The notes under the pieces are model-generated. The model was not told the DNA's origin, made no database searches, and was given only the letters and a program-made list of their open reading frames with translations. Positions 989-15,279 of a stretch of 21,080 bases of DNA are shown here, one piece after another. The stretch is from Neisseriaceae bacterium (GTDB lineage Bacteria; Pseudomonadota; Gammaproteobacteria; Burkholderiales; Neisseriaceae). The stretch is from NCBI GenBank assembly GCA_030151665.1, contig JASLDB010000007.1, positions 1-21,080 on the forward strand. The letters run 5' to 3'. Made by a program: the position numbers and the translations under genes. The first letter of the stretch is position 1. The number at the start of each line of letters is the position of its first letter.

Positions 989-1017
989 TTGTCAAAAATT
1001 TGTCATTATTTTGTCAT
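989..1017 (+). promoter_or_regulatory. Pho box: three 7-bp TTGTCA(A/T) direct repeats at 11-bp phasing (TTGTCAA aaat TTGTCAT tatt TTGTCAT) in the -35 region of the ABC operon promoter
   Basis: Seen directly in the sequence. It matches the PhoB-binding consensus CTGTCAT-N4-CTGTCAT. A possible -10 lies about 11 bp downstream (AACAAT, 1028..1033). A weaker half-site, CTGTCATgattTATTGAT, lies at 868..885. Confidence 0.6.
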
Positions 1018-1069
1018 GATAACTGTGAACAATGAGCACACCTTTGATGACTTTATTTGGTTAACGAAC

Positions 1070-2182
1070 ATGAATGCAAAATGGATTTATCGCAGTTTAT
1101 TGGTGTTGCCTTTGTTGGCAGCGTGTGGTGGTGACAATGCAGCCAAAACAGAAACGGCCAGCAAAGAGGCCAGTACAGTGGCTGTGGCTGAGGTTGAAAC
1201 CGTGGCCAGTATCACGGAAAAAGCCAAACAAGAAGGAAGTGTTAATAGCGTAGGCATGCCAGACACCTGGGCAAACTGGAAAGGCACTTGGGCTGATATC
1301 GCTCAAGAATATGGCTTGAAACACCAAGATACGGACATGAGTTCAGCGCAAGAAATTGCCAAGTTTGCAGCAGAAAAAAACAATGCCACGGCTGATATTG
1401 GCGATGTGGGCATTTCATTTGGCCCGATTGCTGTGCAACAAGGTGTAACACAGGCTTATAAAACCAGCAATTGGGATCAAATTCCAGATTGGGCCAAAGA
1501 CAAAGATGGCCATTGGGTTGTTGGTTACACAGGCACCATTGCTTTTATCGTGAATAAAGACTTGGTTAAAGATGTGCCTCGCAGTTGGGCAGACTTGAAA
1601 AATGGCAAATACAAGGTGACAGTGGGTGATGTATCCAGCGCCAGTCAAGCGGTTAATGGTGTTTTGGCAGCTAACTACGCTTTGGGTGGTACAGAAGCCG
1701 ATTTAACACCTGCGTTGAATTATTTTGCTGATTTGGCTAAACAAAAACGCTTGGGCATGGTTGACCCTGTGATTGCCAATTTGGAAAAAGGTGAAATCGA
1801 AGTGGCAGTGGTGTGGGATTTTAATGGTTTGAATTATCGAAACCAAATTAATCCTGAGCGATTCGAAGTGCTGATTCCATCGGATGGCTCGGTGATTTCG
1901 GGCTATGCAACCATTATCAATAAATACGCAAAAAATCCCAATGCTGCGAAATTAACCCGAGAGTTTATTTTGTCAGATAAAGGTCAATTGAACTTGGCTC
2001 AAGGCTTTGCCAGACCGATTCGTGCAGAGCATTTAACCATTCCTGAAGATATTCAGAAAAAACTGTTACCAAGCGAACAATATGCCAAAGCCAAACCCAT
2101 TAGCGATTTTGCCACTTGGGAAAAAACAGCCAAAGCATTACCAGGCTTGTGGCAGCAAAAAGTTTTGATTCACCAACAATAA
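1070..2182 (+). CDS. ABC transporter periplasmic substrate-binding lipoprotein (solute-binding family 1, PotD/PhnS/FbpA-like)
   Basis: The ORF-track N-terminus begins at a TTG and overlaps the Pho box. The real start is the ATG at 1070 (MNAKWIYRSLLVLPLLAACGG). This gives a lipoprotein signal with a lipobox Cys, followed by a typical family-1 SBP sequence. Confidence 0.85.
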   Translation: MNAKWIYRSLLVLPLLAACGGDNAAKTETASKEASTVAVAEVETVASITEKAKQEGSVNSVGMPDTWANWKGTWADIAQEYGLKHQDTDMSSAQEIAKFAAEKNNATADIGDVGISFGPIAVQQGVTQAYKTSNWDQIPDWAKDKDGHWVVGYTGTIAFIVNKDLVKDVPRSWADLKNGKYKVTVGDVSSASQAVNGVLAANYALGGTEADLTPALNYFADLAKQKRLGMVDPVIANLEKGEIEVAVVWDFNGLNYRNQINPERFEVLIPSDGSVISGYATIINKYAKNPNAAKLTREFILSDKGQLNLAQGFARPIRAEHLTIPEDIQKKLLPSEQYAKAKPISDFATWEKTAKALPGLWQQKVLIHQQ

Positions 2183-2194
2183 GGCTGTTTGACG

Positions 2195-2992
2195 ATGAAG
2201 GTGATTTTAGTGGTATTGGATGGTTTAAACGCTGATGTGGCAGAAAATAATATGGGTTTTTTGAGTGCAATGTGCCAAGAAAAACTCGGTCGTTATTACC
2301 GTTTACAATGCGAGTTACCATCCATGTCACGGCCTTTGTACGAATGCATCTTAACGGGTGTGAAGCCCGTTAAGAGCGGCATTGTACACAATGGTGTGAC
2401 CAGATTATCCTATGAAAAAAGTATTTTCCATTATGCAAAGCAAGCGGGGCTTAAAACAGCGGCTGCGGCATACCATTGGGTGAGCGAGCTTTACAATGCA
2501 TCGCCTTTTGTTGCCCATTTGCACCGACACACTGCCAATGAAGATTTACCCATTCAATATGGTCATTTTTATTATGAAGATCATTATCCCGATTCACATT
2601 TGTTTGATGATGCGGAACACTTGCGTTTAACATATTCCCCCGATTTTTTATTGGTTCATCCCATGAATATTGACGATGCAGGGCACCGTGCAGGTTTGGA
2701 TTCGATGAAATACCGCAACAGTGCGCGCCAAGCTGACACGTTGCTATCATATTATTTGCAAGATTGGCTAGCGGATGGTTACCAAGTATTGGTCACTGCT
2801 GACCATGGCATGAACAATGACCAAAGTCATGGTGGTATTTTGCCAGAGGAGCGGGCAGTACCTTTATTTGTATTCGGTTCGGCTTTTTCGATGGCAGATG
2901 CGACTGTGGCACAAACCGAGTTATGTGGAACCATGGCTGAAATTTTGGCTGTTAAACACGATAAACCCATTTGCAAAGCTTTATTAAAATGA
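2195..2992 (+). CDS. Alkaline-phosphatase-superfamily enzyme (type I phosphodiesterase / nucleotide pyrophosphatase-like), embedded in the ABC operon
   Basis: It has an N-terminal metal-site motif (VILVVLDGLNAD) and a later TADHGMNND motif (DHG metal ligands), both typical of the AP/NPP superfamily. The ORF track starts at TTG 2189, so the ATG at 2195 was chosen as the start. An AAGG lies upstream. Confidence 0.75.
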   Translation: MKVILVVLDGLNADVAENNMGFLSAMCQEKLGRYYRLQCELPSMSRPLYECILTGVKPVKSGIVHNGVTRLSYEKSIFHYAKQAGLKTAAAAYHWVSELYNASPFVAHLHRHTANEDLPIQYGHFYYEDHYPDSHLFDDAEHLRLTYSPDFLLVHPMNIDDAGHRAGLDSMKYRNSARQADTLLSYYLQDWLADGYQVLVTADHGMNNDQSHGGILPEERAVPLFVFGSAFSMADATVAQTELCGTMAEILAVKHDKPICKALLK

Positions 2993-3831
2993 AAAACAAG
3001 TCGTTTTATGGCTTTGCTTTACTAAGCAGTTTGCCATTTCTTTCTTTGTTGTTGCTTTTTTTGATTGCGCCATTATGGTGGGTGGTTATTAGTGCGTTTC
3101 AAAACACAGACGGTGTTTGGACTTTGTCTTGGTTTAAAGAAGTTTTTGGTAACCCGTTTTACCAACAAGCATTCACAACATCATTGAAAATCAGCCTGTG
3201 GCCCAGTGTGATTGGTTTATTGCTTGGGTTTGCTGGGGCATTTTCCTTGTACCGCATCGCTGATACCATTTTTGGTAAAGCGGTTTTGTCCTTAATGAGT
3301 GTTTTGAGTAATTTTACCGGTGTGCCATTGGCTTTTGCTTTTATGATTATTTTGGGCAGCAATGGGGTGATTACCATTTTACTAAGCATGGTGGGCATTA
3401 ATAACCTATTGGATATTTATGGCATGTCAGGCTTGGTGGTGGTGTATGCCTATTTTCAAATTCCATTGGCCATTTTGTTGTTGTACCCTGCCATTGAAAG
3501 CCTAAAAGATGAATGGCAAGAAAGTGCTGCTTTATTGGGGGCAGGTAAATGGACATATTTTCGATTGGTGGCCTTGCCTGTTTTAATGCCTGCGTTATTG
3601 GCAACATTTGTGGTGTTGTTTGCCAATGCCTTAGGCACTTATGCCACGACTTATGCCTTGACCACTGGGAACTTTAATATTTTGTCGATACGCATAGCTT
3701 CTTTGGTGGCGGGGAATTTTTCGCTTGAACCCAATTTGGCTGCTGCCATTGCAGTGTTATTAATGTTGATTATGTTGTTAACGACACTATTGCAGCATTG
3801 GTTGCAACGCCGTTGGAGACATGTTTTATGA
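2989..3831 (+). CDS. ABC transporter permease (PotB/PhnU-like, EAA loop ESAALLGAGKWTYFRLVALP)
   Basis: The protein is multi-pass hydrophobic with an EAA motif. The ATG at 2989 overlaps the upstream TGA (ATGA coupling), and the ORF-track start at 2971 is a TTG. Confidence 0.85.
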   Translation: MKNKSFYGFALLSSLPFLSLLLLFLIAPLWWVVISAFQNTDGVWTLSWFKEVFGNPFYQQAFTTSLKISLWPSVIGLLLGFAGAFSLYRIADTIFGKAVLSLMSVLSNFTGVPLAFAFMIILGSNGVITILLSMVGINNLLDIYGMSGLVVVYAYFQIPLAILLLYPAIESLKDEWQESAALLGAGKWTYFRLVALPVLMPALLATFVVLFANALGTYATTYALTTGNFNILSIRIASLVAGNFSLEPNLAAAIAVLLMLIMLLTTLLQHWLQRRWRHVL

Positions 3832-4616
3832 GTAAGAATCGCTCAAAATGGCCGCATTATTTATTTTTGGGCTTCTTGTCCTTAATCTTGTTGTTGCCTG
3901 TCGTAGCAACCTTAATGTATGCGGTGGCCGTTGATTGGGGTGCAACTTTGTTACCTAAAGGCTGGACGCTGTCTTGGTTGACTGAGTTGTGGGCTGATCG
4001 GCGTTTTCTGATTTCGTTTCGCAATTCGTTGGTAATTTGTACCGCTTCGGCCTTTTTAACGATAGCAGTGTGTTTACCTGTGTTGTTGTGGGTGCACACA
4101 CGATTTACACGATTGGCAGGGACATTGAATGCAGTGGTTGCCTTGTCTTTCTCTGTGCCGCCTGTGGTGGCTTCTGTTGGGTTATTGCAATTGTACAGCG
4201 GTGATCCATTGCCTTTAACAGGCACGGCTTGGATTTTATTGGGCTGTTATTTCACCATTGCTTTGCCATTTGTGTACCGAGCCATCGACAACAATATGCG
4301 GGCTTTGAATGTTAAAGAGTTGGTCGATGCGGCAGAGTTACTGGGCGCATCCAGTCTTAAAGCATTGTGGTATGTGATTTTACCCAATTTGAAAAATGGC
4401 TTATTGGTGGCGTTTTTGATTTCATTGTCATTTTTGATGGGGGAATTTGTTTTTGCCAATTTATTGGTGTGTGGACAGTTCGAAACCATGCAAGTGTATT
4501 TGTACAGTATTAAAAACATGTCAGGACATTATTCCAGTGCCTTGGTGGCATCGTATTTTGTCATTATTTTGTTGCTAACCTTTTTGGTTAGCTTATTGAA
4601 TCCTGCAAAGAAGTAG
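3828..4616 (+). CDS. ABC transporter permease (PotC/PhnV-like, EAA loop DAAELLGASSLKALWYVILP)
   Basis: The protein is multi-pass hydrophobic with an EAA motif. The ATG at 3828 overlaps the upstream stop at 3829..3831 (ATGA coupling). Confidence 0.85.
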   Translation: MSKNRSKWPHYLFLGFLSLILLLPVVATLMYAVAVDWGATLLPKGWTLSWLTELWADRRFLISFRNSLVICTASAFLTIAVCLPVLLWVHTRFTRLAGTLNAVVALSFSVPPVVASVGLLQLYSGDPLPLTGTAWILLGCYFTIALPFVYRAIDNNMRALNVKELVDAAELLGASSLKALWYVILPNLKNGLLVAFLISLSFLMGEFVFANLLVCGQFETMQVYLYSIKNMSGHYSSALVASYFVIILLLTFLVSLLNPAKK

Positions 4617-4626
4617 TGAGCGATCC

Positions 4627-5628
4627 ATGGCGTATTTACAAGTGAAAGCTGCGCACAAAGCGTATCAAGACAAAGTGGTGTTAAACCACATTGAGTTAAG
4701 TGTGGATCAAGGTGAGTTTGTGACATTGTTAGGCCCCAGTGGTTGTGGTAAATCCACATTGTTGCGTGCTATTGCAGGTTTAAACCCTTTAGACAGTGGC
4801 AGCATTGTGTTAAATGGTCGTGATATTACCCATGCAACACCACAAAAACGAAATATTGCCATGGTTTTTCAGCATTATGCTTTGTTTCCCAATATGACAG
4901 TAAGCCAAAATGTAGGCTTTGGCTTGAAGATGAAAAAACAAAACAAATCAGTTATCCAAGACAAAGTCTTGGCAATGTTGGATTTGGTGGCGTTAAGCGA
5001 ACACAGCCATAAACACCCACATGAATTGTCGGGTGGGCAAAAGCAGCGTGTGGCATTGGCACGAGCTTTGGTCACAGAGCCTGATTTATTGTTATTGGAT
5101 GAACCGTTGTCTGCATTGGATGCCAAAATTCGCAAAAGTTTGCGTGAGCAAATTGGGCGCATTCAACGCCAGTTAAATTTGGCAACGATTTTTGTGACCC
5201 ACGATCAAGAAGAGGCTTTGACCATGTCTGATCGAGTGGTGTTGATGCAAGGCGGCAATATTGCAGAAAATGCCACGCCTGAAAACTTATACCGTCTGCC
5301 ATCCAGTCAATTTTCAGCAGAGTTTATTGGACATTATAATTTACTCACGGCCCAAGACTTGCAATTGGACAATGAAAAAAGCAATCGTTTGTTTGCCATT
5401 CGCCCTGAAACCATCGGTTTACATCGGGTAACGGGTCAGCAGGCGGCGGTGATTGTGGGCAGAACATTGTTGGGCAATGTGGTGCGTTACCAAGCCCAAA
5501 CAGAGCGAGGGCTTTTGTTAAATTGTGATGTGCTCAATGTGGGTGAGATGGCATCGTTGCAAATGGGTGATGCAGTGTTTTTGAGCATGAATCAACAAGA
5601 TTTGGTGGCATTGCCTTTGGCTAGCTAG
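4627..5628 (+). CDS. ABC transporter ATP-binding protein (PotA/FbpC/PhnT-like, with C-terminal TOBE-type domain)
   Basis: The sequence carries Walker A (GPSGCGKST), an ABC signature (LSGGQKQRVALARAL), Walker B (LLLLDE) and an H-loop (VTHD). A C-terminal extension of about 100 aa is typical of importer ATPases of this family. Confidence 0.9.
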   Translation: MAYLQVKAAHKAYQDKVVLNHIELSVDQGEFVTLLGPSGCGKSTLLRAIAGLNPLDSGSIVLNGRDITHATPQKRNIAMVFQHYALFPNMTVSQNVGFGLKMKKQNKSVIQDKVLAMLDLVALSEHSHKHPHELSGGQKQRVALARALVTEPDLLLLDEPLSALDAKIRKSLREQIGRIQRQLNLATIFVTHDQEEALTMSDRVVLMQGGNIAENATPENLYRLPSSQFSAEFIGHYNLLTAQDLQLDNEKSNRLFAIRPETIGLHRVTGQQAAVIVGRTLLGNVVRYQAQTERGLLLNCDVLNVGEMASLQMGDAVFLSMNQQDLVALPLAS

Positions 5629-5650
5629 TTTGATTCACGGATTTAATAGC

Positions 5651-5704
5651 ATAAACAAAACCAAGCTGTTGTGCGACTGAGCATAACAGCTTGGTTTTGT
5701 TTAT
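5651..5704 (+). terminator. Rho-independent terminator: perfect 20-bp inverted repeat (ATAAACAAAACCAAGCTGTT / AACAGCTTGGTTTTGTTTAT) with a 14-nt loop and a T-rich tail
   Basis: Seen directly in the sequence. It sits immediately after the ABC ATPase stop. Confidence 0.8.
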
Positions 5705-5742
5705 GGTCATGACGAAATAATGTTAAGATGGATTGGTTGTGA

Positions 5743-6498
5743 ATGCCAAAAGATAGGTTTATGTTTGCCAAAATTCAAGAAAAACTCCAAGTCATTGCCG
5801 AGGAAAAGGCAATTCGTTTTTTATTCGTTGCCGAAAGTGGTAGCCGGGCATGGGGCTTTGCCTCTACTGATAGCGATTATGATGTTCGGGGTATTTATGT
5901 TCAATCCCAAGAAGCATACTTGTGTATCCAGCATGAGGAAGAGGGTTTTGATTGGATAGAGAATGATTGGTTTGACGTGGGTGCATGGGATATTCGAAAA
6001 ACCTTGCGTTTACTGAGTAAATCCAATGCCGTGGTGTTAGAGTGGTTGCAATCGCCTATTGTTTATCAAACAGAGGGCAATGTACAACAAGCATTATTGG
6101 ATTTGGCTCAGGCTTTTAGCCAGCCGCGTCATTTGCTTTATCACTATCGGGGAATCGCAAAAACAGCCAGCAGTGCTTTTGTTAATGATGCCATTCGTTT
6201 GAAAAAATGGTTTTATATCATTCGACCTTTATTGGCGGCACGTTGGGTGGTTAAAGAAGGTGGTATTGCGCCCATGACTTTGGCGCAATTGCAAACCCAG
6301 TTGCCGATTGCAGAGCAAACTTTGCTAACAGATTTGGTGGCATTCAAAGAAGAACAAAGCGAGGAGTATGTGTGGCAGATGGGGCGTGATTATCAGCAAT
6401 TATTGACCCGATTGTGGGATGAGACTCAGGTGGAGCTGCCGATCAAAGATGTGCCCAATATAGCCTTACTAGATGAATGGTTTAGGACACAATTATGA
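5743..6498 (+). CDS. Pol-beta-superfamily nucleotidyltransferase (predicted-nucleotidyltransferase / RlaP-like family), paralog 1
   Basis: The N-terminal motif ESGSRAWGFASTDSDYDVRGIY fits the minimal NTase signature GS-x9-11-D-x-D (hG[GS] plus two catalytic Asp), followed by a helical C-terminal region. An alternative start is possible at 5761. Confidence 0.65.
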   Translation: MPKDRFMFAKIQEKLQVIAEEKAIRFLFVAESGSRAWGFASTDSDYDVRGIYVQSQEAYLCIQHEEEGFDWIENDWFDVGAWDIRKTLRLLSKSNAVVLEWLQSPIVYQTEGNVQQALLDLAQAFSQPRHLLYHYRGIAKTASSAFVNDAIRLKKWFYIIRPLLAARWVVKEGGIAPMTLAQLQTQLPIAEQTLLTDLVAFKEEQSEEYVWQMGRDYQQLLTRLWDETQVELPIKDVPNIALLDEWFRTQL

Positions 6499-7544
6499 AT
6501 TTGGACATTCATGCTATTCGTCCATATTTATTGTTGGAATGTATTTCTGGCAGTAAAGCGTATGGTCTTGATACCGAAACATCGGACACCGATTTAAAAG
6601 GGGTGTTTTACTTACCCAAAGCCATGTGGCTGCGCGGCGAATATGTGGCGCAAGTGAGCAATGATACCAATGATGAAGTGTATTATGAATTGGGTCGATT
6701 CATTGAGTTGCTGTGTGAGTCCAATCCCAGCATGTTGGAATTGCTGCACGCACCGTCAGAAACCATTTTGTATCGCCATGCCATAATGGACCAATTGAAA
6801 AATGACTGGTTTGTGAGTCAGGCGTGTCAAGAGCGGTTTGCAGGCTATGCCATGGGGCAATTGAAAAAAGCGATAGGCTTGAATAAAAAAGCCTTGAATC
6901 CGATGAGCCATGAGAAAAAAAGCTTGTGGTCGTTTTGCTATGTGTTAATGGATGGCCAGAGTATGGCATTGCCAGATTGGTTGGCAAAAAATCAATATGC
7001 CAAAGAAAATATTGGTTTAAGTAAGGTGGCACATGCGCGTGATATTTATGCCATGTACCATGGTGAAAATATGGGGTTTTTGGGCATCGAAAATGGTTCC
7101 AATGCCAAAGAGTTAACCACCAGTAGCATTCCCAAGGGAATGCCTTGTGTGGGTTATTTGAGCATGAATCTCGATGGCTTTAGCAGCTATTGCAAAGAGT
7201 ATCAGTCATATTGGCAATGGATGAAAGAGCGCAACAGCAGTCGCTATGCCAGTAATCAAACTGGCTATGATTGTAAAAACATGATGCACACTTTTCGGTT
7301 ATTGCAATCAGCATTGCATATTGGCAAAACAGGGCAGGTACAAGTGCGAAGTGAGGCGCGCGAAGCATTATTGGCCATTAAATCTGGGCAATATGCGTAT
7401 GATGAACTAATGAGTCAAGCACAAGATTTGATGCAACAAGTGGCTTTGGCATTTGAAAACAGTGTTTTACCACAGGATATTGAGCGAGAAACTGCTAAAA
7501 ATGCTTTGGCAGACATGAGATCTATTTTGTATAACATGGGGTAA
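6495..7544 (+). CDS. Pol-beta-superfamily nucleotidyltransferase, paralog 2 (349 aa), translationally coupled to paralog 1
   Basis: It has the motif ISGSKAYGLDTETSDTDLKGVFY, the same signature as the upstream gene. There is an ATGA start/stop overlap at 6495..6498. The C-terminal domain is larger. Confidence 0.65.
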   Translation: MNLDIHAIRPYLLLECISGSKAYGLDTETSDTDLKGVFYLPKAMWLRGEYVAQVSNDTNDEVYYELGRFIELLCESNPSMLELLHAPSETILYRHAIMDQLKNDWFVSQACQERFAGYAMGQLKKAIGLNKKALNPMSHEKKSLWSFCYVLMDGQSMALPDWLAKNQYAKENIGLSKVAHARDIYAMYHGENMGFLGIENGSNAKELTTSSIPKGMPCVGYLSMNLDGFSSYCKEYQSYWQWMKERNSSRYASNQTGYDCKNMMHTFRLLQSALHIGKTGQVQVRSEAREALLAIKSGQYAYDELMSQAQDLMQQVALAFENSVLPQDIERETAKNALADMRSILYNMG

Positions 7545-7584: not shown

Positions 7585-7619
7585 AAGCCACTAGCATGTT
7601 GTTAGTGGCTTGTTTTTTA
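7585..7619 (+). terminator. Rho-independent terminator (AAGCCACTA / TAGTGGCTT stem, 9-nt loop, TTTTTT tail)
   Basis: Seen directly in the sequence. It lies downstream of the second nucleotidyltransferase gene, in a convergent intergenic region. Confidence 0.7.
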
Positions 7620-7745: not shown

Positions 7746-8492
7746 TTATTTTGTTAGCTTAAGAATCAGTTCAGGTGCTAATTTTTCTCGAACAGAATAA
7801 AGCGAAGGCATTAAATTTTTTGGATGTTTGTCACTGACATTCATAATATTTTGTGCATAAAGAAGGTCGATGACCTCTTCAGCAATAAGGTTATTAATTT
7901 CATTACTGATTTCATCTAACCCACCTGGGCTTTTATCATTAATGAATTTTTTCTTCACATTGCTTTTGCTGCTGCCGTATCGACTGGTCTCAAAACGTTT
8001 GGTGAGAATATTGCCAATGGAAAAGGTTGGTTTATAAAGTCTTGTTTCTTGTGTATACACTGTTGAGTAAATGCCATCGACACGGTCATAGAGTGATTGG
8101 GATTGTGTATCTATTAGTCTTTGATAAGTTTCCATATTGTTGCGGCAAGCTTGGGTAAAGTTTTTATGCGTTTTCTCATCAGCCCCCATTCCAACATCAA
8201 TCATGATGGTGTAGAAATCTTGTTTGATATAGGTGCTGTCTTCAGGGGTAATGTCCCAATAAATATCTTTTTTGGTTTTACCTTGTTTTTTGAGAAGATA
8301 AGCTTTGGATACTGCATTGCCTATTTCACTGCAGCTGATTGATGGTGCCAATTCTCTAAAAAAACTCACAGAAAATGCTGGTATTTCATCTTCTGCTTTT
8401 TCAGCAGCAGAAGTATAAGCTGTATAGCTTATCAATATGGTGGATAAAATGATTGTAGACAGTTTTCTTTGAATGGGTTTTGCTTTTTGCAT
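7746..8492 (-). CDS. Secreted/periplasmic hypothetical protein (248 aa), no recognisable family
   Basis: A hydrophobic N-terminal signal (LSTIILSTILISYTAYTSAAE) follows a basic n-region. An AAGGA RBS lies 5 nt upstream. The protein is Lys-rich and hydrophilic. Confidence 0.6.
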   Translation of the reverse strand: MQKAKPIQRKLSTIILSTILISYTAYTSAAEKAEDEIPAFSVSFFRELAPSISCSEIGNAVSKAYLLKKQGKTKKDIYWDITPEDSTYIKQDFYTIMIDVGMGADEKTHKNFTQACRNNMETYQRLIDTQSQSLYDRVDGIYSTVYTQETRLYKPTFSIGNILTKRFETSRYGSSKSNVKKKFINDKSPGGLDEISNEINNLIAEEVIDLLYAQNIMNVSDKHPKNLMPSLYSVREKLAPELILKLTK

Positions 8493-8563: not shown

Positions 8564-8998
8564 TTATTGAAATCTCGACGTGCATGCACTAACGACGACT
8601 TCACATGTACCTTTTTCATTGGTGCGATGCCTTGATACCCGTTTATCTTCTTTGGTTTTACCAAAGCCGATTCTCTCAATTTGTCGATAACAATCATTGA
8701 TCGCATAAGATTTTAGATCATAGTAATTGCCACCATAGGTTTCTCGTATGAAATTGTGGGATCTAGAATACGTTAGCATGCCACAAGTGTTTTGAAATTC
8801 AAATACATGGCAACCTGGGCAGTCTTTTTTGACCGCATTTGTTGCACGATTGGCAACTGGATAATCAACACCACTGGATGTCTGCCCTGTTTTTTTATCA
8901 AAGCCAATAGCACCGTAACAATTAGGAAGCCAACAATCCGCAGCATAACTGATGGGAGCAGCAACAAGAATAATCATGCATATTAATATTTTTTTCAT
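8564..8998 (-). CDS. Secreted Cys-rich protein, DUF4189-like (paralog A)
   Basis: It has a signal peptide (MKKILICMIILVAAPISYA) and eight Cys. The motif CxLPNCYGAIGFDKKTG...CPGC...C is shared with the next gene. The ATG at 8998 is preferred over the GTG at 9013. Assignment to DUF4189 is from memory and not verified. Confidence 0.6.
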   Translation of the reverse strand: MKKILICMIILVAAPISYAADCWLPNCYGAIGFDKKTGQTSSGVDYPVANRATNAVKKDCPGCHVFEFQNTCGMLTYSRSHNFIRETYGGNYYDLKSYAINDCYRQIERIGFGKTKEDKRVSRHRTNEKGTCEVVVSACTSRFQ

Positions 8999-9099
8999 CG
9001 GTTTCTGTCTCACAATGGGGATGAATCAATAACAAATTTGATAAATTAACAAAAATATCAAATAACCATTTTAATGAAAATCAAAGTAATCAATCATCA

Positions 9100-9534
9100 T
9101 TAAATAGGGCGTTTGGTGCAGGCTTTAACAGCGATATGGCATTCACCTCGTTCGCCATGTTGTCGGTAAGAGCGTCTTTTGTCTGTGCTTATTTTTGAGT
9201 AGCCGATGTCATTAATTTTTTGACGACAGGTTGCTAAAGCATCTTCTTGTACCATGTCTTCATACCAAGCCGTTTCATAAACTAAAATATTGTGTGTGTT
9301 CGAATAAGCAATAGCCGCACAGGTTTCTTTAAAGGGCACAATTTCACATGAAGGGCATTCCTTTTTGGCAGCCGTGTTTGCTGCATGAATATTGGAATAA
9401 TTTACTTTGCTAGCTGTTTTTCCAGTGTTTTTATCAAATCCAATAATGCCATAGCAATTGGGTAGCTCACATTGAGCATGGGCAAGTTGGCTAAGAAAAA
9501 AGGGCAGGGTTATCAATACTAAAATTTTTTTCAT
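9100..9534 (-). CDS. Secreted Cys-rich protein, DUF4189-like (paralog B)
   Basis: It has a signal peptide (MKKILVLITLPFFLSQLAHA). It is a clear paralog of 8564..8998, with the CELPNCYGIIGFDKNTG and CPSC motifs and eight conserved Cys. Confidence 0.65.
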   Translation of the reverse strand: MKKILVLITLPFFLSQLAHAQCELPNCYGIIGFDKNTGKTASKVNYSNIHAANTAAKKECPSCEIVPFKETCAAIAYSNTHNILVYETAWYEDMVQEDALATCRQKINDIGYSKISTDKRRSYRQHGERGECHIAVKACTKRPI

Positions 9535-9693: not shown

Positions 9694-10701
9694 TTATCGC
9701 ATCTTATCAATGGTATTTTCTTTGTAAAGTTCAAACAATTCTTCAGATTGCATTGGGTTGCTGTTGTACATAGCAATCTGGAGAACCAGTATTATGATGA
9801 TAAAGATTAGTCCTGCATAGCTACCTTGTCTTGGTGGGGCACCATATTCATTGGCTTCTTGGCTGCCTGGCATGAACCATAAATACAGTGAGAAGATAAC
9901 CCAAAATGCAATATATAAGAGAGGGTGCAATAGCTGCAATACAATGCCTATTAATATTGAAAAGAGCGCCCACCAACCCGTTTGGTTGCAATCGTGTAAA
10001 CGAAGAATCATGATTTTAATATAAAAAAACATGGACAAAATACCAGCTATTGCCAATAGTACCGCCGTTAAAATGGGTGATACCACTGCAAACATGAAAA
10101 TGATGATAGTCGCGGGGATGCAGGAAAGAACGAAAATAATAGAGGCATTAAGGTAGTTTAAACGACCATAACGGCCGTTAACACTGAATGAAAAGAGACT
10201 AGGAGGCTCAACGATTTCGTTACGAGATTGCCTCTCATAATAGTTGCTATTGGGGGTGGTATAGGCATTGTTGTCTCGGTAGGTATGGTGATTGCTTTGT
10301 GTGGTTTTGCCACCATAAAACGCATCATCCATATTGATGCCAGCGGTTGTTGGTTTTTGCTGTGATTCTTCTAGTTTTAAACCATGAATAGAGGGGCTTT
10401 TGTAGCCAGCTTGTGCGCCTTGCGAATTGGGTGAGCTGTTATCACCTTGAATACTCAGTTCAGAAACAATGCTTTCTTCCTCAATGGCGATTTGTAGGCC
10501 AATGGTTTGTAACTTTTGCTTTAATTTATTGGCATCTTCAAATGAAATGTTTTTTTTCAACGGGATGCGTTTACCCGAAAAGAAAGTTGCCATTTCTTGT
10601 TCAGATAATTTCAATAAATGCTGTGTTTGATTGCTGACTTGGTGAATATCAAAGCCAGATAATAAACTCCCAGTAAAAACGATACGGTATTTTGCTAGCA
10701 T
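9694..10701 (-). CDS. DUF805-family inner-membrane protein with a 170-aa N-terminal cytoplasmic domain and an Asn/Gln/Tyr-rich linker
   Basis: The C-terminal half carries the DUF805 signature (RLNYLNAS...LRLHDCNQTGWWALFSIL...). It has 3-4 TM helices. The N-terminal region is soluble. Confidence 0.7.
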   Translation of the reverse strand: MLAKYRIVFTGSLLSGFDIHQVSNQTQHLLKLSEQEMATFFSGKRIPLKKNISFEDANKLKQKLQTIGLQIAIEEESIVSELSIQGDNSSPNSQGAQAGYKSPSIHGLKLEESQQKPTTAGINMDDAFYGGKTTQSNHHTYRDNNAYTTPNSNYYERQSRNEIVEPPSLFSFSVNGRYGRLNYLNASIIFVLSCIPATIIIFMFAVVSPILTAVLLAIAGILSMFFYIKIMILRLHDCNQTGWWALFSILIGIVLQLLHPLLYIAFWVIFSLYLWFMPGSQEANEYGAPPRQGSYAGLIFIIIILVLQIAMYNSNPMQSEELFELYKENTIDKMR

Positions 10702-11112: not shown

Positions 11113-11733
11113 ATGAAAAAAAGTTCTGCACATTACCAGCGGCTGTATCGAGAGCGTTTGCGTGAACAAGGTTTAATCAAAAAAGAAATTTGGATTTTGC
11201 CTGAATACACCGCAATGCTTAATCAGATAGAGCAACAATTTCGCCAAGTCGATAACCTTGTTTTGACGCAAAGTCAGGAGATGATGAGTATGGAGCAAAC
11301 CCCATTTTGGCAAGTGAGTACGTTATTTAGCCAGTTGAAAGAAGCGTGCCAAGCGCAGCAACTTCATGTCGATGTACAGTTGCTTGAGGGGACTGAGCCG
11401 ATTATTCATGTGGTGATGCATGATTTTGGTGATTTGCCATTGTTTATTGCGGTGGCGGGTGAGCAAATTATTGTCGAAGGCACTTTGTGGCCGGAAACCG
11501 CTGTTAAAGATGTGGCTGGTTTTAATGATTTGGTTTTGCGGACACATCAATTGTTTCCTTTGTCGAATATTGGTATTCACAGTTCAGAGGGTATGCCTAG
11601 TTATTACGTGATGTATGGTTCTCTGAATTGCCAGTCGCGCATTAGCAGTGTGATTACAGAAATATTGGTATTGGCAGACAATATTATTAAAGCGACAGAG
11701 GCTTACGAAGCGCATTTGTTTGCGGATGTTTAG
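11113..11733 (+). CDS. YjfI/DUF2170-like (YbjN-type fold) cytoplasmic protein with a 55-aa basic N-terminal extension
   Basis: In E. coli yjfI precedes the PspA paralog yjfJ, and the order is the same here. The C-terminal 150 aa have a YbjN-like alpha/beta pattern. The N-terminus (AHYQRLYRERLREQGLIKKEIWILPEY) is basic and resembles a small DNA-binding module. An internal alternative start with a strong RBS lies at 11279/11282 (AGGAG ATGATG). Family assignment has moderate confidence. Confidence 0.55.
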   Translation: MKKSSAHYQRLYRERLREQGLIKKEIWILPEYTAMLNQIEQQFRQVDNLVLTQSQEMMSMEQTPFWQVSTLFSQLKEACQAQQLHVDVQLLEGTEPIIHVVMHDFGDLPLFIAVAGEQIIVEGTLWPETAVKDVAGFNDLVLRTHQLFPLSNIGIHSSEGMPSYYVMYGSLNCQSRISSVITEILVLADNIIKATEAYEAHLFADV

Positions 11734-11755
11734 CCGATTCATAAGGAGTGACAAA

Positions 11756-12466
11756 ATGAGTATATGGAGCAAAATGATTACCGCCTTGCGTGGTGGTGCA
11801 CATGAAATGGGTGAAAATATTATTGACGGCCAAGCTTTGCGTATTTTGGATCAAGAAATTCGTGATGCAGACGCTCAACTTCGTCAGTCAAAAGCGGCTT
11901 TGGCAGATATTATGGCCAAGCAAAAATTAGCCAAAAATGAAGTCAAGCTGCACGGTGACAAAATTGCGGAATATGAGCAATATGCTGTTCAAGCTTTAGA
12001 AACTGATAATGAAGCTTTGGCTTTGGAAGTGGCAGAAAAAATTGCGAAACTAGAAGTATTGCACACGGAAGCCACAGAGCAAATGACAGCTTACACCAAC
12101 AGTGTTAATCAGTTGCAAAAATCGGTATTGGATGTTGAGAGCCATATTAAGCGGCTCAAACAGCAAGCTGATACGGTGCGGGCAACCGACAGTGTTCAAA
12201 AAGCACAAATGGCTGTCTCCAAAAGTTTTGATGGTTCACAAGCCAAAGTGCATACCGCTTTAGAATCGTTGGAAAAAATTAAAAAGCAACAAGCGCAGCA
12301 AGCTGCTAAATTTGAAGCCCAACAAGAATTGCATCAAATGGGTGCTGATGACGATGCTTTGAATCATAAGTTACAAGCAGCGGGCATTGTGCCAGCAAAA
12401 TCCAGTGCAGACAGTGTTTTATTGCGCTTAAAAGCGAAACAGAAAAATACAGATACTGCTAATTAA
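11756..12466 (+). CDS. PspA/IM30-family protein (phage-shock protein A paralog, YjfJ-like; bacterial ESCRT-III superfamily)
   Basis: An AAGGAG RBS lies 7 nt upstream. The N-terminus (MSIWSKMITALRGGAHEMGENII) fits the PspA amphipathic helix a0. The coiled-coil body aligns with E. coli YjfJ/PspA motifs (EVAEKIAKLEVL, TVRATDSVQKAQMAV). The ORF-track start at 11720 is rejected. Confidence 0.85.
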   Translation: MSIWSKMITALRGGAHEMGENIIDGQALRILDQEIRDADAQLRQSKAALADIMAKQKLAKNEVKLHGDKIAEYEQYAVQALETDNEALALEVAEKIAKLEVLHTEATEQMTAYTNSVNQLQKSVLDVESHIKRLKQQADTVRATDSVQKAQMAVSKSFDGSQAKVHTALESLEKIKKQQAQQAAKFEAQQELHQMGADDDALNHKLQAAGIVPAKSSADSVLLRLKAKQKNTDTAN

Positions 12467-12493
12467 TCCATCACCATGAAAGGAGGCAGCGCT

Positions 12494-13123
12494 ATGTTTA
12501 TGGATATTGCGTTGTCGTTTCCAACTGTTATTTTTTCTGTCTTTTTTGCGGTATCCACTGCTTTGTGGTTGGTCAGTATTATTGGATTATTGGACATTGA
12601 AGCCAATTCTGTGGATATGGAAATGGGTGATGTGTCTGCGACAGGGCAGATGATGGGTGTATTGTCTCGTTTGGGTCTGAGTGGTGTACCCATCACCATT
12701 GTCTTGAGTTTATTGTCCATGATTGGTTGGACAGTGAGCTTTACCTTGCAGTATTTTGCCATGGGCTTGGTTGGCAGTGGTGTTTTGATGTATGTCCTGG
12801 GTGCGGTCATTTTTGTGGTGACATTTTGGCTGTCGATTAAATTGACAGCTTTATTTTGCAAACCTTTGCGGGTATCTCTGGCCAGTCACAGTGCGATTAA
12901 TAAAGCACAACTAATCGGTCAAATGGTGGTGGTGCGTAGCATGAGTGTGACAGCGACTTTTGGGGAGGCTGTTTTTAGCGCTGATGGCGTTACCATGAAC
13001 TTGAGAATCAGAGACAGTGAACAAAAAGGTTTTACCGCAGGGGATCAGGTGGTTTTACTGAAGTACGATAGCACAGCGGATGCTTTTGCTGTCATTAGCA
13101 CAGAAGAATTTAACGGTTTTTAG
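12494..13123 (+). CDS. NfeD-like short-form membrane protein (YqiJ/YuaF-like): N-terminal TM helices plus a C-terminal OB-fold beta-barrel
   Basis: The strong RBS GAAAGGAGG (12479..12486) favours the ATG at 12494 over 12476. There are about 4 TM segments. The C-terminal segment (LIGQMVVVRSMSVTATFGEAVFSADGVTMNLRIRDSEQKGFTAGDQVVLLKY) resembles the NfeD OB domain. NfeD genes classically sit next to SPFH/flotillin genes. Confidence 0.75.
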   Translation: MFMDIALSFPTVIFSVFFAVSTALWLVSIIGLLDIEANSVDMEMGDVSATGQMMGVLSRLGLSGVPITIVLSLLSMIGWTVSFTLQYFAMGLVGSGVLMYVLGAVIFVVTFWLSIKLTALFCKPLRVSLASHSAINKAQLIGQMVVVRSMSVTATFGEAVFSADGVTMNLRIRDSEQKGFTAGDQVVLLKYDSTADAFAVISTEEFNGF

Positions 13124-13166
13124 TTTACATTGCACGCTAACTCATTAATACAAAGGAAAGAACAAC

Positions 13167-15194
13167 ATGAGTCCTATTTTGACCATGATTATCACGTTGG
13201 TGGTCGGTATTGTTATTGCCGTCATTGGTATTTTTATTTTGTTAAAAGCGTTTTATACAAAAGTACCACAAGGCACGGCTTTGATTAAAAATGGCTTGAT
13301 GTTAAGTCAACCGAAAGTCAGTTTTACAGGTGCATTTGTATTTCCAGTGATCCACATTAAAGAATTTATGAAGATTTCTTTGGTTACTTTACAAGTCGAT
13401 CGCCGTGGCAAAGATGGCTTGATTTGTAAAGATAACTTGCGTGCAGACATTACCGTGGCATTTTACTTGCGTGTGAATGAAACGGCTGACGATGTATTAA
13501 AGGTGGCAAAATCAGTGAGTGTGAATCGTGCATCTGATCAAGTCGCCTTGGATGAATTGTTTAATGCCAAGTTTTCTGAAGCTTTGAAAACCGTGGGTAA
13601 ACAATTTAATTTTGAACAGCTATTTGATGAACGCCAAAATTTTCGTGATCGAATTGTGCAAACGATTGGTGAGGATTTGAATGGTTATGCGCTAGAAGAC
13701 GTTGCCATTGATTACTTAGAGCAAACACCAGTTGATTTATTGGATAAAACCAAGATTCAAGATGCGGAAGGTATTCGCAAAATTACAGAATTGACCGCTC
13801 GAGAAGGGGTGGCAACCAATGAATTGATGCGAAACGCAGAATTGGCGATTCAAAAGAAAAACGTAGAAGCCAAAGAAGCATCCTTGGCATTGGAGCGTCA
13901 ACAAGCGACAGCAGAAGCTGCGCAGCGTCGTGAGATTGAGAGTAACCAAGCTCGCGAAACAGCGCAAACTGAAATTGTTCGAGAGCAAGAGCGTTTGCGT
14001 CAAGAAGAAGCACGCATTGCAACACAAGAGCAAATCGAAGTGCGTACCCAAAATCAACAACGTGAAATCGAAGTGGCTGAGCAAAATCGCCAACGTGCGG
14101 TGGTGATTGAAGTGGAAAAAGTCACTCGCTCCAAAGAATTGGAAGTGGTGGCTCGAGAACGCGAAGTCGAATTGCAACGCATTGAAAAAGAAAAAGCATT
14201 GGAGGTTGAACGCAAAGAAATTGCCAATGTGATTCGTGAGCGTGTATCGGTTGAAAAAACCGTTGCGCAAGAAGAAGAAAAAATTAAAGAAGTGCGTGAA
14301 GTATCAGAAGCAGAACGCATGAAAAAAGTATCGATTTTAGAAGCCGAAGCCGATGCAGAACAAGCTTTGGTTCGCCAAGTGAAGCAAGCGCAAGCGGATG
14401 AAGAAAAATCGAAACACCGTGCTGTTGAAATCAATACCTTGGCGCAAGCAGAATTAGAAGCTGCTGCCAAAGAAGCTGAAGCCAAAGCACGCATTGCTGA
14501 AGGCATGAAAGCTGAACGTGCAGCACCTGGTTTGGCTGATGCTCGTGTATTGGAAGTTACCGCTGCTGCCCGTGAAAAAGAAGGCTTGGCAACTGCACGC
14601 ATTAAGCAAGAAATGATGTTGGCAGAAGCGCGTGGTGAAGAAGAAAAAGGTTTGGCACAAGCGCGTGTATTAGAAGCACAAGCCGATGCCAAAGAAAAAG
14701 ATGGTTTGGCAGAAGCCAAAGTCTTGGAAGAAAAATTAATTGCCAAGGCGCGTGGTGAAGAACAAGTTGGTGTGGCACAAGCGAATGTGACCAAAGAACG
14801 TGGTCAAGCTGATGCCAAAGCCTTGTTGGATAAATTCAATGCTGAAGCTGAGGGCTTAACCAAGAAATTTGTGGCTTTGGCTAATATGAGCGAAAGCACC
14901 CGTTCACACGAAGAATTCCGTTTGCAACTTGAAAAAGAATTGAACGAAACATTAACGGCCATTGCTGCAAATAAAGACATTGCCAAAGACCAAGCAGAAG
15001 TTTTGGCTGCTGCATTGTCTAAAGCGAAAGTGGAATTGGTTGGTGGTGGTGGTGAATACTTTAATTCATTCGCTAAATCATTGTCGATTGGCAAGAGCAT
15101 TGAAGGTGTTGTTGGCAAAAGCCCAATGGTGCAAGATTTACTCAGCCGCTTCTTGGGCGGTCAGAAAACTGATTCATTGAACAATATGGATTAA
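13167..15194 (+). CDS. Flotillin-family SPFH/band-7 protein (YqiK/FloT-like), 675 aa, with an N-terminal TM anchor and a very long EA-rich coiled coil
   Basis: An AAAGGAAAG RBS lies upstream. The N-terminal hairpin/TM is MSPILTMIITLVVGIVIAVIGIFILL. The SPFH core is present (e.g. GLICKDNLRADITVAFYLRVNE). It is followed by about 400 aa of E/A/K/R/Q-rich repeats, including four tandem xEKxGLAxAxVLE-type repeats at about 14530..14790. Confidence 0.85.
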   Translation: MSPILTMIITLVVGIVIAVIGIFILLKAFYTKVPQGTALIKNGLMLSQPKVSFTGAFVFPVIHIKEFMKISLVTLQVDRRGKDGLICKDNLRADITVAFYLRVNETADDVLKVAKSVSVNRASDQVALDELFNAKFSEALKTVGKQFNFEQLFDERQNFRDRIVQTIGEDLNGYALEDVAIDYLEQTPVDLLDKTKIQDAEGIRKITELTAREGVATNELMRNAELAIQKKNVEAKEASLALERQQATAEAAQRREIESNQARETAQTEIVREQERLRQEEARIATQEQIEVRTQNQQREIEVAEQNRQRAVVIEVEKVTRSKELEVVAREREVELQRIEKEKALEVERKEIANVIRERVSVEKTVAQEEEKIKEVREVSEAERMKKVSILEAEADAEQALVRQVKQAQADEEKSKHRAVEINTLAQAELEAAAKEAEAKARIAEGMKAERAAPGLADARVLEVTAAAREKEGLATARIKQEMMLAEARGEEEKGLAQARVLEAQADAKEKDGLAEAKVLEEKLIAKARGEEQVGVAQANVTKERGQADAKALLDKFNAEAEGLTKKFVALANMSESTRSHEEFRLQLEKELNETLTAIAANKDIAKDQAEVLAAALSKAKVELVGGGGEYFNSFAKSLSIGKSIEGVVGKSPMVQDLLSRFLGGQKTDSLNNMD

Positions 15195-15198
15195 ACAC

Positions 15199-15226
15199 AA
15201 CAACAGGGGCTTTGGCTCCTGTTGTT
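15199..15226 (+). other. Intercistronic stem-loop (12-bp stem AACAACAGGGGC/GCTCCTGTTGTT with one G-U, UUUG loop) without a U-tract, between the flotillin and giant-ATPase genes
   Basis: Seen directly in the sequence. It is not a canonical terminator. It could be an mRNA-processing, stability or attenuation element that tunes stoichiometry. Confidence 0.45.
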
Positions 15227-15279
15227 ACCATGGGCGATTGATTTAAATCGTGATTGAATCGGTTTGGTAAGGATGGAAG

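Follow-up and report, generated by a model that had tools for sequence, protein, structure and literature searches.

The question raised by this locus is what two related nucleotidyltransferases (NTases), encoded by overlapping genes that we call A and B, do together, and whether the pair is as exceptional as an earlier note on the window (the whole 21,080-nucleotide stretch of DNA analysed here) had proposed. That note, made from the letters of the DNA, described a translationally coupled pair of paralogous Pol-beta-type NTases of the RlaP kind, each with the signature GS-x10-D-x-D near its N-terminus. The two open reading frames, their ATGA overlap and their coordinates are as it claimed (Table 1), and the signature is present near the N-terminus of both proteins, fitting residues 32-47 of A and residues 18-33 of B.

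Table 1. Features of the A-B locus and its flanks; positions are those of the window.
Feature	Positions	Strand	Details
Long hairpin between ABC-transporter ATPase gene and ORF A	5650..5705	+	arms 5650-5674 and 5681-5705; 6-nt loop
ORF A, short-form RlaP nucleotidyltransferase	5743..6498	+	251 aa; N-terminal NTase domain, then C-terminal helical domain
A catalytic motif	5836..5883	+	S32-D47, SGSRAWGFASTDSDYD; from sequence and alignment
A third carboxylate	5974-5976	+	D78
Coupling junction	6484..6498	+	AGGA at 6484-6487 inside the 3' end of A; ATGA stop/start overlap at 6495-6498
ORF B, long-form RlaP nucleotidyltransferase	6495..7544	+	349 aa
Parts of ORF B (residues)			NTase core about 1-105; long helix 110-134; inserted alpha/beta subdomain about 144-224; C-terminal helical bundle 226-348
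B catalytic motif	6546..6593	+	S18-D33, SGSKAYGLDTETSDTD; from sequence and alignment
B third carboxylate	6672-6674	+	D60
Intrinsic-terminator-like hairpin and T-run	7585..7619	+	41 nt past the B stop codon; tail GTTTTTTATG

Run against Pfam, both proteins match PF10127 (RlaP) above its curated gathering score of 23, A over the whole model (E 9.5e-62, 209.3 bits) and B over only the N-terminal half (E 2.3e-22, 80.4 bits). The profile search thus puts both in a characterised family with members known to act on RNA 3' ends (PMC12776372), and to that extent the novelty first claimed for the pair falls away. A and B are also related to each other (BLASTP 31% over 85 aa, E 3e-8; 76 columns at a probability of 96.7% by hhalign), which bears out the claim of paralogy, and these alignments indicate that it is limited to the NTase core. 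AF2 models of the two proteins (pLDDT about 91-92) have a two-domain NTase and helical build, and both follow the RlaP layout of an N-terminal NTase and a C-terminal helical domain; A is a short canonical RlaP and B a long form whose overall layout is that of phage T4 NrdC.11. No match to CD-NTase/SMODS or AbiEii/MenT (DUF1814) models was obtained for A or B in Pfam and PADLOC scans, the AbiEii/MenT motif having been called absent beforehand, and no NCBIfam model matched either protein. Searches of PDB sequences with A, B and the family profiles gave no real match in a set that did not include the PfRlaP structure. Two low-scoring candidates for B were set aside, JetB in PADLOC (E 0.021) as noise and DUF7401 in Pfam (E 0.017) as falling under the cut-off.

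The residues expected of an active NTase are fully conserved in both families: G33, S34, D45, D47 and D78 are invariant in 61 of 61 A-type orthologues, and G19, S20, D31, D33 and D60, together with E65, in all 81 B-type orthologues. Judged from these intact active sites, both proteins are predicted to be catalytically competent. This bears directly on the idea that the two overlapping genes of this operon encode a toxin-antitoxin system of the MNT/HEPN kind, in which one protein nucleotidylylates and thereby neutralises the other, because a complete invariant NTase site and a helical domain in both A and B leave no toxin/antitoxin asymmetry. Whereas MNT-HEPN systems consist of a minimal NTase, about 100-140 aa long, and a HEPN RNase as a second protein, A and B have the helical domain fused and are two to three times the size of MNT proteins, as the earlier note had rightly stressed when it called them far larger than the MNT antitoxins. 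The alignments of A and B hold no conserved HEPN R-x4-6-H (R129 in the R-x4-H134 of A is not conserved), and in many genomes the two genes lie kilobases apart, all of which makes such a system extremely improbable.

A and B form a bicistronic operon with translational coupling of B to A, as had been claimed; a Shine-Dalgarno AGGA can be read from the sequence 7 nt ahead of the ATG of B. Alignment with homologues suggests that the true start of A may be Met7 (5761) and not 5743. The description of the pair as an insulated unit is supported for termination, with hairpins on both sides, and lacks support for initiation. Upstream, beyond the stop of the ABC-transporter ATPase gene at 5628, lies a hairpin of 25 pairs including one G-U (dG -40.8 kcal/mol, z -10), whose first 21 pairs, counted from the base, are all Watson-Crick and show that a 20-bp perfect stem had been correctly recognised; its sequence is found only once in the window, and it probably terminates or attenuates the preceding operon. 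The terminator proposed downstream was also found, as a hairpin of 12 pairs (7585-7611, dG -17.4) followed by GTTTTTT. A consensus scan of the plus strand from the upstream gene to A found no sigma-70-like promoter, and no sigma-54 motif was seen by eye ahead of A. Also by eye, the stretch after the upstream hairpin contains a weak TTGTTT-15-TAATGT, too weak for a promoter claim.

Comparison with other genomes overturned the view that tandem RlaP pairs lacking RtcB are unusual. When genome contigs were searched with an alignment, a B-type gene was recovered from at least 582 of the 185,579 species genomes (a single B sequence as query gave no match). Of the 80 B-type loci examined, 66 have an A-type gene upstream of B on the same strand, directly adjoining it in 47; where the two adjoin, about two-thirds of the pairs overlap. 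The pairwise-identity matrices of A and B correlate (Pearson 0.82), pointing to co-inheritance, and A followed by B is a widespread conserved module. RtcB is found within 6 kb of the orthologous pair in 21 of these 80 loci and a divergent WYL+WCX regulator near it in 18, a Band-7 gene being seen as well, and in Bacteroidota WYL / Band-7 / RlaP-A / RlaP-B / RtcB is a common operon order. In Moraxella, Neisseria, Proteus, Glaesserella and Alysiella the pair is normally bare, with no RtcB, and the nearest relatives of the pair in the window are bare pairs too. An RNA-ligase neighbourhood therefore typifies a part of the RlaP family and not each member; the window lacks it, and it contains no RNA ligase, RtcA, RtcR/WYL regulator, ribotoxin or tRNA gene, while Rfam and tRNA scans of it returned no matches. 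As the same pair is present in hundreds of species, often beside RtcB, the one in the window is an ordinary family member, and the locus alone adds little beyond a further instance of a named family with an activity now assigned.

The RlaP family was reportedly defined by Burroughs and Aravind in 2016, and in the accessible literature, a check that did not extend to that work, we found no study of the short and long pair. Among the three functions offered at the outset, RNA tailing or repair is the best supported, and nothing specific speaks for nucleotide-signal defence or antibiotic modification. The closest guide is the work on PfRlaP and PaRlaP, whose genes belong to the Pseudomonas rtcB-rlaP-rtcA operon (Carruthers, Fatma & Huang 2025, PMC12776372). 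These enzymes add one or two NMPs to an RNA 3'-OH, favour mimics of cleaved tRNA, and consist of an NTase and a helical domain with three conserved Asp (PMC12776372). Like them, A and B belong to PF10127, with A matching the full-length model, and have a helical C-terminal domain behind an N-terminal NTase that bears G-S, D-x-D and a third Asp, a likeness drawn from the family model and the published layout. Orthologues of A and B elsewhere are likewise located in RtcB operons. Unlike the Pseudomonas systems, the present locus has two paralogous genes, one short and one long, where those have one; RtcB, RtcA and RtcR are absent from the window, and the regulator in relatives of A-B, where there is one, is WYL+WCX and not RtcR.

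By analogy with these enzymes we consider it probable, with moderate confidence, that the pair is a two-enzyme module that restores the 3' ends of RNA damaged by ribotoxins, any ligase being encoded at another site. A and B would be template-independent RNA 3'-terminal nucleotidyltransferases, made together through the coupling of B to A, and would extend the 3'-OH of broken RNA by one or two NMPs. Candidate substrates would be the tRNA halves produced when a ribotoxin both cuts and removes a nucleotide; once the lost residues were restored, the RNA could be sealed again by such a ligase or become usable again. Both the RNA substrate and the repair role are what we infer for this organism, where the paralogues would most likely have separate tasks, each with its own nucleotide or RNA substrate, or else form a heteromer. 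In jumbo phages, comparative genomics found that the distribution of RlaP mirrors that of RNA ligases (PMC7824862). Some observations sit uneasily with a repair module: the characterised RlaPs are all single genes, the window holds no ligase, and the identity between A and B is only about 30% over 85 aa.

The same activity could serve a housekeeping or regulatory purpose, with A and B placing 3' tails on tRNA or mRNA for decay or end mending, independently of any ligase or conflict. RlaP needs only an RNA 3'-OH and also accepts single-stranded RNA (PMC12776372), and among the proteobacterial loci examined a ligase lies near the pair in one only. The GC content of the pair agrees with that of the surrounding genome, and thus does not point to recent acquisition; a search around the pair for direct or inverted repeats flanking it and for a GC anomaly found neither, and a 4.5-kb Logan contig from another sample, 99% identical, carries the pair in the same context. 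No record of a protein identical to B was found; the best hits and a GC content of about 42% suggest that the source is probably Moraxellaceae-like. However, the small and patchy set of species that have the pair, with none found in E. coli, argues against a core housekeeping role. The gene context of the pair differs between genera, and RNA-repair and conflict genes are found in association with the orthologous pairs and the phage relatives. We therefore regard routine RNA tailing as improbable.

The phage relatives concern B. T4 NrdC.11 (336 aa) is placed in cluster 5 of the RlaP SSN (PMC12776372), and B is of the same length class and layout, with similarity in the NTase core (E 1e-10) and in the C-terminal D-x-K...H..R helical region (E 2e-4), at an identity of only about 30%; A shows only marginal similarity to it. 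B-like genes are present in 298 phage records, of which 191 match at least 80% of the length of B, and T4-like and jumbo phages are among the carriers of B-type relatives. Unlike the pair in the window, the phage copies stand alone with no A-type partner. The gene upstream of the B-like gene in Tenacibaculum phage PTm1 was considered as an A homologue and proved unrelated on comparison. Even in T4 the long NrdC.11-like form has no assigned function, which gives the pair a modest value.

Comparison of neighbourhoods between genera showed a patchy distribution; defence systems appeared at the junction of the pair in Flavobacterium and related genera, and the pair in the window stands alone. In those genera A and B lie kilobases apart with Lamassu, Gabija, Hachiman, Olokun, PDC-M62 and Septu-like systems between them, so that tight coupling is not obligatory, and the A|B boundary in the RtcB operons of Flavobacteriia is a hotspot for defence genes. 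This association of RNA-repair genes with anti-phage islands merits a dedicated survey. The placement ties the pair physically to defence islands, as would be expected if one or both NTases made a nucleotide or oligonucleotide signal or decoy in anti-phage defence, in the manner of CD-NTase/CBASS or Hailong HalB, and the patchy distribution and changing context fit such a role. Against it, PADLOC matches are no better than noise, no SMODS/CD-NTase Pfam model is matched, and the operon has neither an effector nor a HalA-like membrane partner. The product of HalB is oligodeoxyadenylate and its partner is the membrane channel HalA (PMC13276650), whereas no gene for a HalA-type membrane ion channel and no CBASS effector gene adjoins the pair, and A and B differ from HalB (PDB 9dbh; Tan et al. 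2025) in sequence, at 13-14% identity. By sequence they belong to RlaP, a family in which the enzymes assayed lengthen RNA at its 3' end (PMC12776372), and the orthologous pairs are linked to RtcB. Signalling by the pair in defence is accordingly quite improbable.

A more speculative form of the repair account, which we think possible and still rather unlikely, is that the short and long RlaPs are an obligate two-subunit enzyme with no dedicated ligase, healing or tagging RNA 3' ends on its own and giving immunity to nucleotide-trimming ribotoxins or to RNases of phages and competitors; the tie to defence would then not be incidental, and the defence systems placed between the two genes would hint that RNA repair and abortive-infection-type defences are co-regulated, with repair limiting self-damage.

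The acceptor might also be something other than RNA, A and B being small-molecule or protein nucleotidylyltransferases such as aminoglycoside or lincosamide ANT-type enzymes or DrrA/GlnE-type AMPylases. The scores reflect a common NTase and helical-domain fold; identity is 9-15%, no Pfam or NCBIfam resistance-enzyme model was matched, and there is no sequence-family match to ANT/KNTase or to DrrA/GlnE. The acceptors of those enzymes are drugs or proteins, and the A/B locus has no resistance or effector context. In biochemical work on the family, RNA alone was labelled among E. coli macromolecules (PMC12776372), and the orthologues are linked to RtcB, so that modification of a drug or protein is very improbable. 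The compact, ligase-less pair would offer a clean system for asking why two RlaPs are needed. Among plasmids, a single genuine one, from Hymenobacter, carries a full-length B-type gene.

Profile searches place both genes of the pair, on sequence grounds, in a named family whose activity has recently been assigned. The short-form gene, A, matches PF10127 (RlaP, 'RNA repair pathway DNA polymerase beta family') across the whole Pfam model (E 9.5e-62), and the long-form gene, B, matches it at residues 12-126 only (E 2.3e-22); NCBIfam has no model for A or B, and PADLOC gave only noise-level matches for the two. Burroughs & Aravind 2016, as cited by PMC6514570 and PMC7824862, coined the name RlaP for an association of the family with RNA ligase genes. 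Two RlaPs from Pseudomonas, whose genes lie between rtcB and rtcA, were characterised in a December 2025 preprint (PMC12776372), where RNA was the sole E. coli macromolecule labelled, 1 or 2 NMPs were added to an RNA 3'-OH, not a 3'-P, and the 5' half of a cleaved-tRNA mimic was favoured. The crystal structure reported there comprises a nucleotidyltransferase (NTase) domain and, C-terminal to it, a helical domain; three Asp are conserved. The authors propose that RlaP puts back nucleotides cut off by 'smart' ribotoxins (e.g. RloC) before ligation.

Reading the sequence confirmed two same-strand ORFs in which the stop of A and the start of B share ATGA, with AGGA located 7 nt 5' of the B ATG, and the GS-x10-D-x-D motif that the earlier note described is fitted by residues 32-47 of A and 18-33 of B. 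Homologues of A start at the residue aligned with Met7 (MFAKIQEKL...), so the true start may be the ATG at 5761 instead of 5743; neither candidate has a strong Shine-Dalgarno. The hairpins, the upstream one standing between A and the ABC-transporter ATPase gene (stop at 5628), bear out the proposal of an insulated unit as far as termination on both sides is concerned, but not for independent initiation, as no promoter turned up on the + strand ahead of A in a consensus scan. The GC content of the pair equals that of its surroundings (0.42-0.43), and no flanking repeats were found around it in the window.

Features of the window and of B-type loci in other genomes (positions refer to the window; L numbers denote loci)
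Feature	Location	Strand	Remarks
ABC importer operon	989-5628	+	SBP_bac_6 binding protein, two permeases, ATPase with TOBE domain
Type I phosphodiesterase/nucleotide pyrophosphatase-family gene	2189-2992	+	between binding protein and permeases
Upstream hairpin	5650-5705		25 bp, dG -40.8 kcal/mol, z -10
A	5743..6498	+	251 aa
B	6495..7544	+	349 aa
Downstream hairpin and T-run	7585-7619		12 bp, 3' of B
248-aa ORF	7746-8492	-	signal-like N-terminus; flanks DUF4189 pair
Two tandem paralogous DUF4189 proteins	8564-9013, 9100-9534	-	hydrophobic (signal-like) N-terminal segments
DUF805 membrane protein	9694-10701	-	flanks DUF4189 pair
DUF2170	11113-11733	+
PspA/IM30	11720-12466	+
Two ORFs without Pfam match	12476-13123, 13167-15194	+
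1653-aa protein	15280-20241	+	DUF3686 'ATPase involved in DNA repair', DUF7902, AAA_5
Lamassu	L019, between A-type and B-type		LmuB, E 2e-95 (PADLOC)
Gabija	L030, between A-type and B-type		GajA 4e-219, GajB 3e-245
Hachiman	L040, between A-type and B-type		HamA and HamB 5e-303
Hachiman, second HamB	L061, between A-type and B-type
Olokun	L045, between A-type and B-type		OloA and OloB
PDC-M62, Septu-like	L058, L063, between A-type and B-type		A and B genes
AriA/OLD-like ATPase	L042, L055, between A-type and B-type
Type II methyltransferase	L073, between A-type and B-type
PDC-M62A gene	L026, just upstream of B	opposite to B	no A-type within 6 kb upstream of B
IetS	L018, just upstream of B		no A-type within 6 kb upstream of B

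The earlier note took a tandem RlaP-like pair with no RtcB partner to be unusual; the arrangement proved to be common, with nothing aberrant in the window's copy. Protein searches returned thousands of homologue clusters for each gene, and the matches repeatedly share taxa and equal-sized contigs, which is consistent with co-location of A-type and B-type genes in Proteus, Moraxella, Neisseria, Pasteurellaceae, Alysiella and Bacteroidota. Scanning one genome per species turned up a B-type gene in at least 582 species, and the best 80 of these loci were analysed with our own ORF calling, clustering and HMMs. Of the 80, 64 have an A-type gene upstream of B and on its strand, and tblastn adds two (L009, L012) in which the A-type reading frame is overlapped by a long ORF of the opposite strand. 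The two genes are directly adjacent in 47/80, and an overlap is seen in about 30 of the 45 pairs whose junction could be measured; in 12 it is 4 nt long, as in the window, B-type starts being estimates from alignment. Several of the loci without an A-type gene are cut by a contig end (L025, L072) or have long cargo upstream of B (L018, L026), and in these it may lie beyond the 6 kb examined upstream of B.

The catalytic residues are invariant in A (G33/S34/D45/D47/D78, 61/61) and in B (G19/S20/D31/D33/D60/E65, 81/81); judged by sequence, neither of the two is a dead partner. Across loci, the pairwise identities of A correlate with those of B (Pearson 0.82, Spearman 0.37), in keeping with inheritance of the two as a unit; B is more conserved than A (mean identity 58% and 43%). 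The pairs most closely related to the one in the window share only 54% identity with it and are likewise bare; they follow a divergent CMD gene and vary in what lies downstream. The ABC-transporter context of the window recurs on a 4.5-kb contig, 99% identical, from another sample. The pair is absent from E. coli and essentially never carried on plasmids, one Hymenobacter plasmid excepted.

The neighbourhoods range from repair operons to bare pairs. By Pfam, RtcB lies near the pair in 21/80 loci (20 Bacteroidota and the gammaproteobacterium Hydrocarboniphaga, L046), a divergent WYL+WCX regulator occurs in 18/80, and a Band-7/SPFH protein, a TatD nuclease and a ~750-aa protein with a weak RING-like match also recur. 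The typical Pedobacter order is WYL (divergent), Band-7, RlaP-A, RlaP-B, RtcB (e.g. L065). In five Bacteroidota loci (L017, L043, L067, L020, L037) a conserved protein of ~750-770 aa, whose sole match is a weak Prok-RING_4 (E 7e-5, under cut-off), adjoins the RlaP pair and WYL regulator and is a candidate component of the RNA-repair operons. Bare pairs occur in Moraxella, Proteus, Neisseria, Glaesserella, Alysiella and an Acinetobacter MAG, in contexts kept within a genus and differing between genera. Three Neisseria loci (L006, L007, L011) have a small ORF (107-179 aa) between the two genes; the 179-aa one has a signal-peptide-like N-terminus and no Pfam match. Bare pairs have no ligase gene nearby; ligase-independent housekeeping RNA tailing, an alternative taken up again below, seems unlikely.

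The two genes are set apart by 1.5-5 kb of variable cargo, on the same strand, in Flavobacterium, Soonwooa, Chryseobacterium and Kingella; wherever PADLOC recognises any of this cargo, it is anti-phage defence. Since this cargo sits inside the order RtcB, (TatD), RlaP-A, [cargo], RlaP-B in Flavobacterium and Soonwooa (L023, L030, L035, L042, L048), the A|B junction behaves as a defence hotspot within an RNA-repair operon. Kilobases of cargo also show that tight translational coupling is not obligatory. The earlier note's question of a location in defence islands is thereby answered in part: it holds for these other lineages and not for the window.

Only their NTase cores make A and B akin, with 31% identity across 85 aa and 76 hhalign columns. 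In the confident AlphaFold models (pLDDT 91.8 for A, 91.4 for B) both proteins have an NTase domain and, after it, a helical domain; B has in addition an alpha/beta subdomain inserted at about residues 144-224. Folds resembling A are DrrA (10.4), ANT(3'')(9) (9.4), HalB (9.4), KNTase (9.3), GlnE (9.1) and HEPN domains (7-8); for B they are HalB (9.9) and generic NTase and HEPN proteins (<=7.8). Alternative readings are a HalB-like or CD-NTase-like enzyme that makes a signal or decoy for defence, which we consider quite unlikely; an enzyme of the ANT or AMPylase type that modifies small molecules or proteins, which is improbable; and an MNT/HEPN-like toxin-antitoxin pair, which is very improbable indeed. 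These three and ligase-independent tailing have fold-level similarity or context only as their basis; all four are contradicted by the RlaP sequence-family assignment, and the defining partner genes of those systems are absent.

The simplest reading, and a reasonably probable one, is that A and B are two RlaP enzymes for damaged RNA 3' ends, a substrate that we infer. Both would be active and co-produced from one mRNA, and the paralogues might differ in nucleotide or RNA specificity, act sequentially or form a heteromer. KNTase-type enzymes are dimeric, and by analogy an A-B heteromer is conceivable. Orthologous pairs are linked to RtcB, WYL and Band-7, which connects the module with RNA repair and conflict; its phage relatives do so too, as does the report that RlaPs are distributed alongside RNA ligases in jumbo phages (PMC7824862). 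Phage T4 NrdC.11 (336 aa), placed in a separate cluster by the RlaP similarity network (PMC12776372), resembles B at its two ends (E 1e-10 and 2e-4) and A only marginally. B-like phage genes (298 records, 191 near full length) are often found in T4-like, Vequintavirinae and jumbo phages, and A-like ones, some labelled 'YcgL', occur in phiKZ-like phages.

Elsewhere in the window, the same-strand run of five ORFs at 11113-20241 (+) resembles a cluster for membrane stress or conflict associated with PspA. The sole Pfam match of the 248-aa ORF, Swm2, is a eukaryotic family and probably spurious. In the ABC importer operon, the most upstream start given by the ORF finder is TTG in four of five ORFs.
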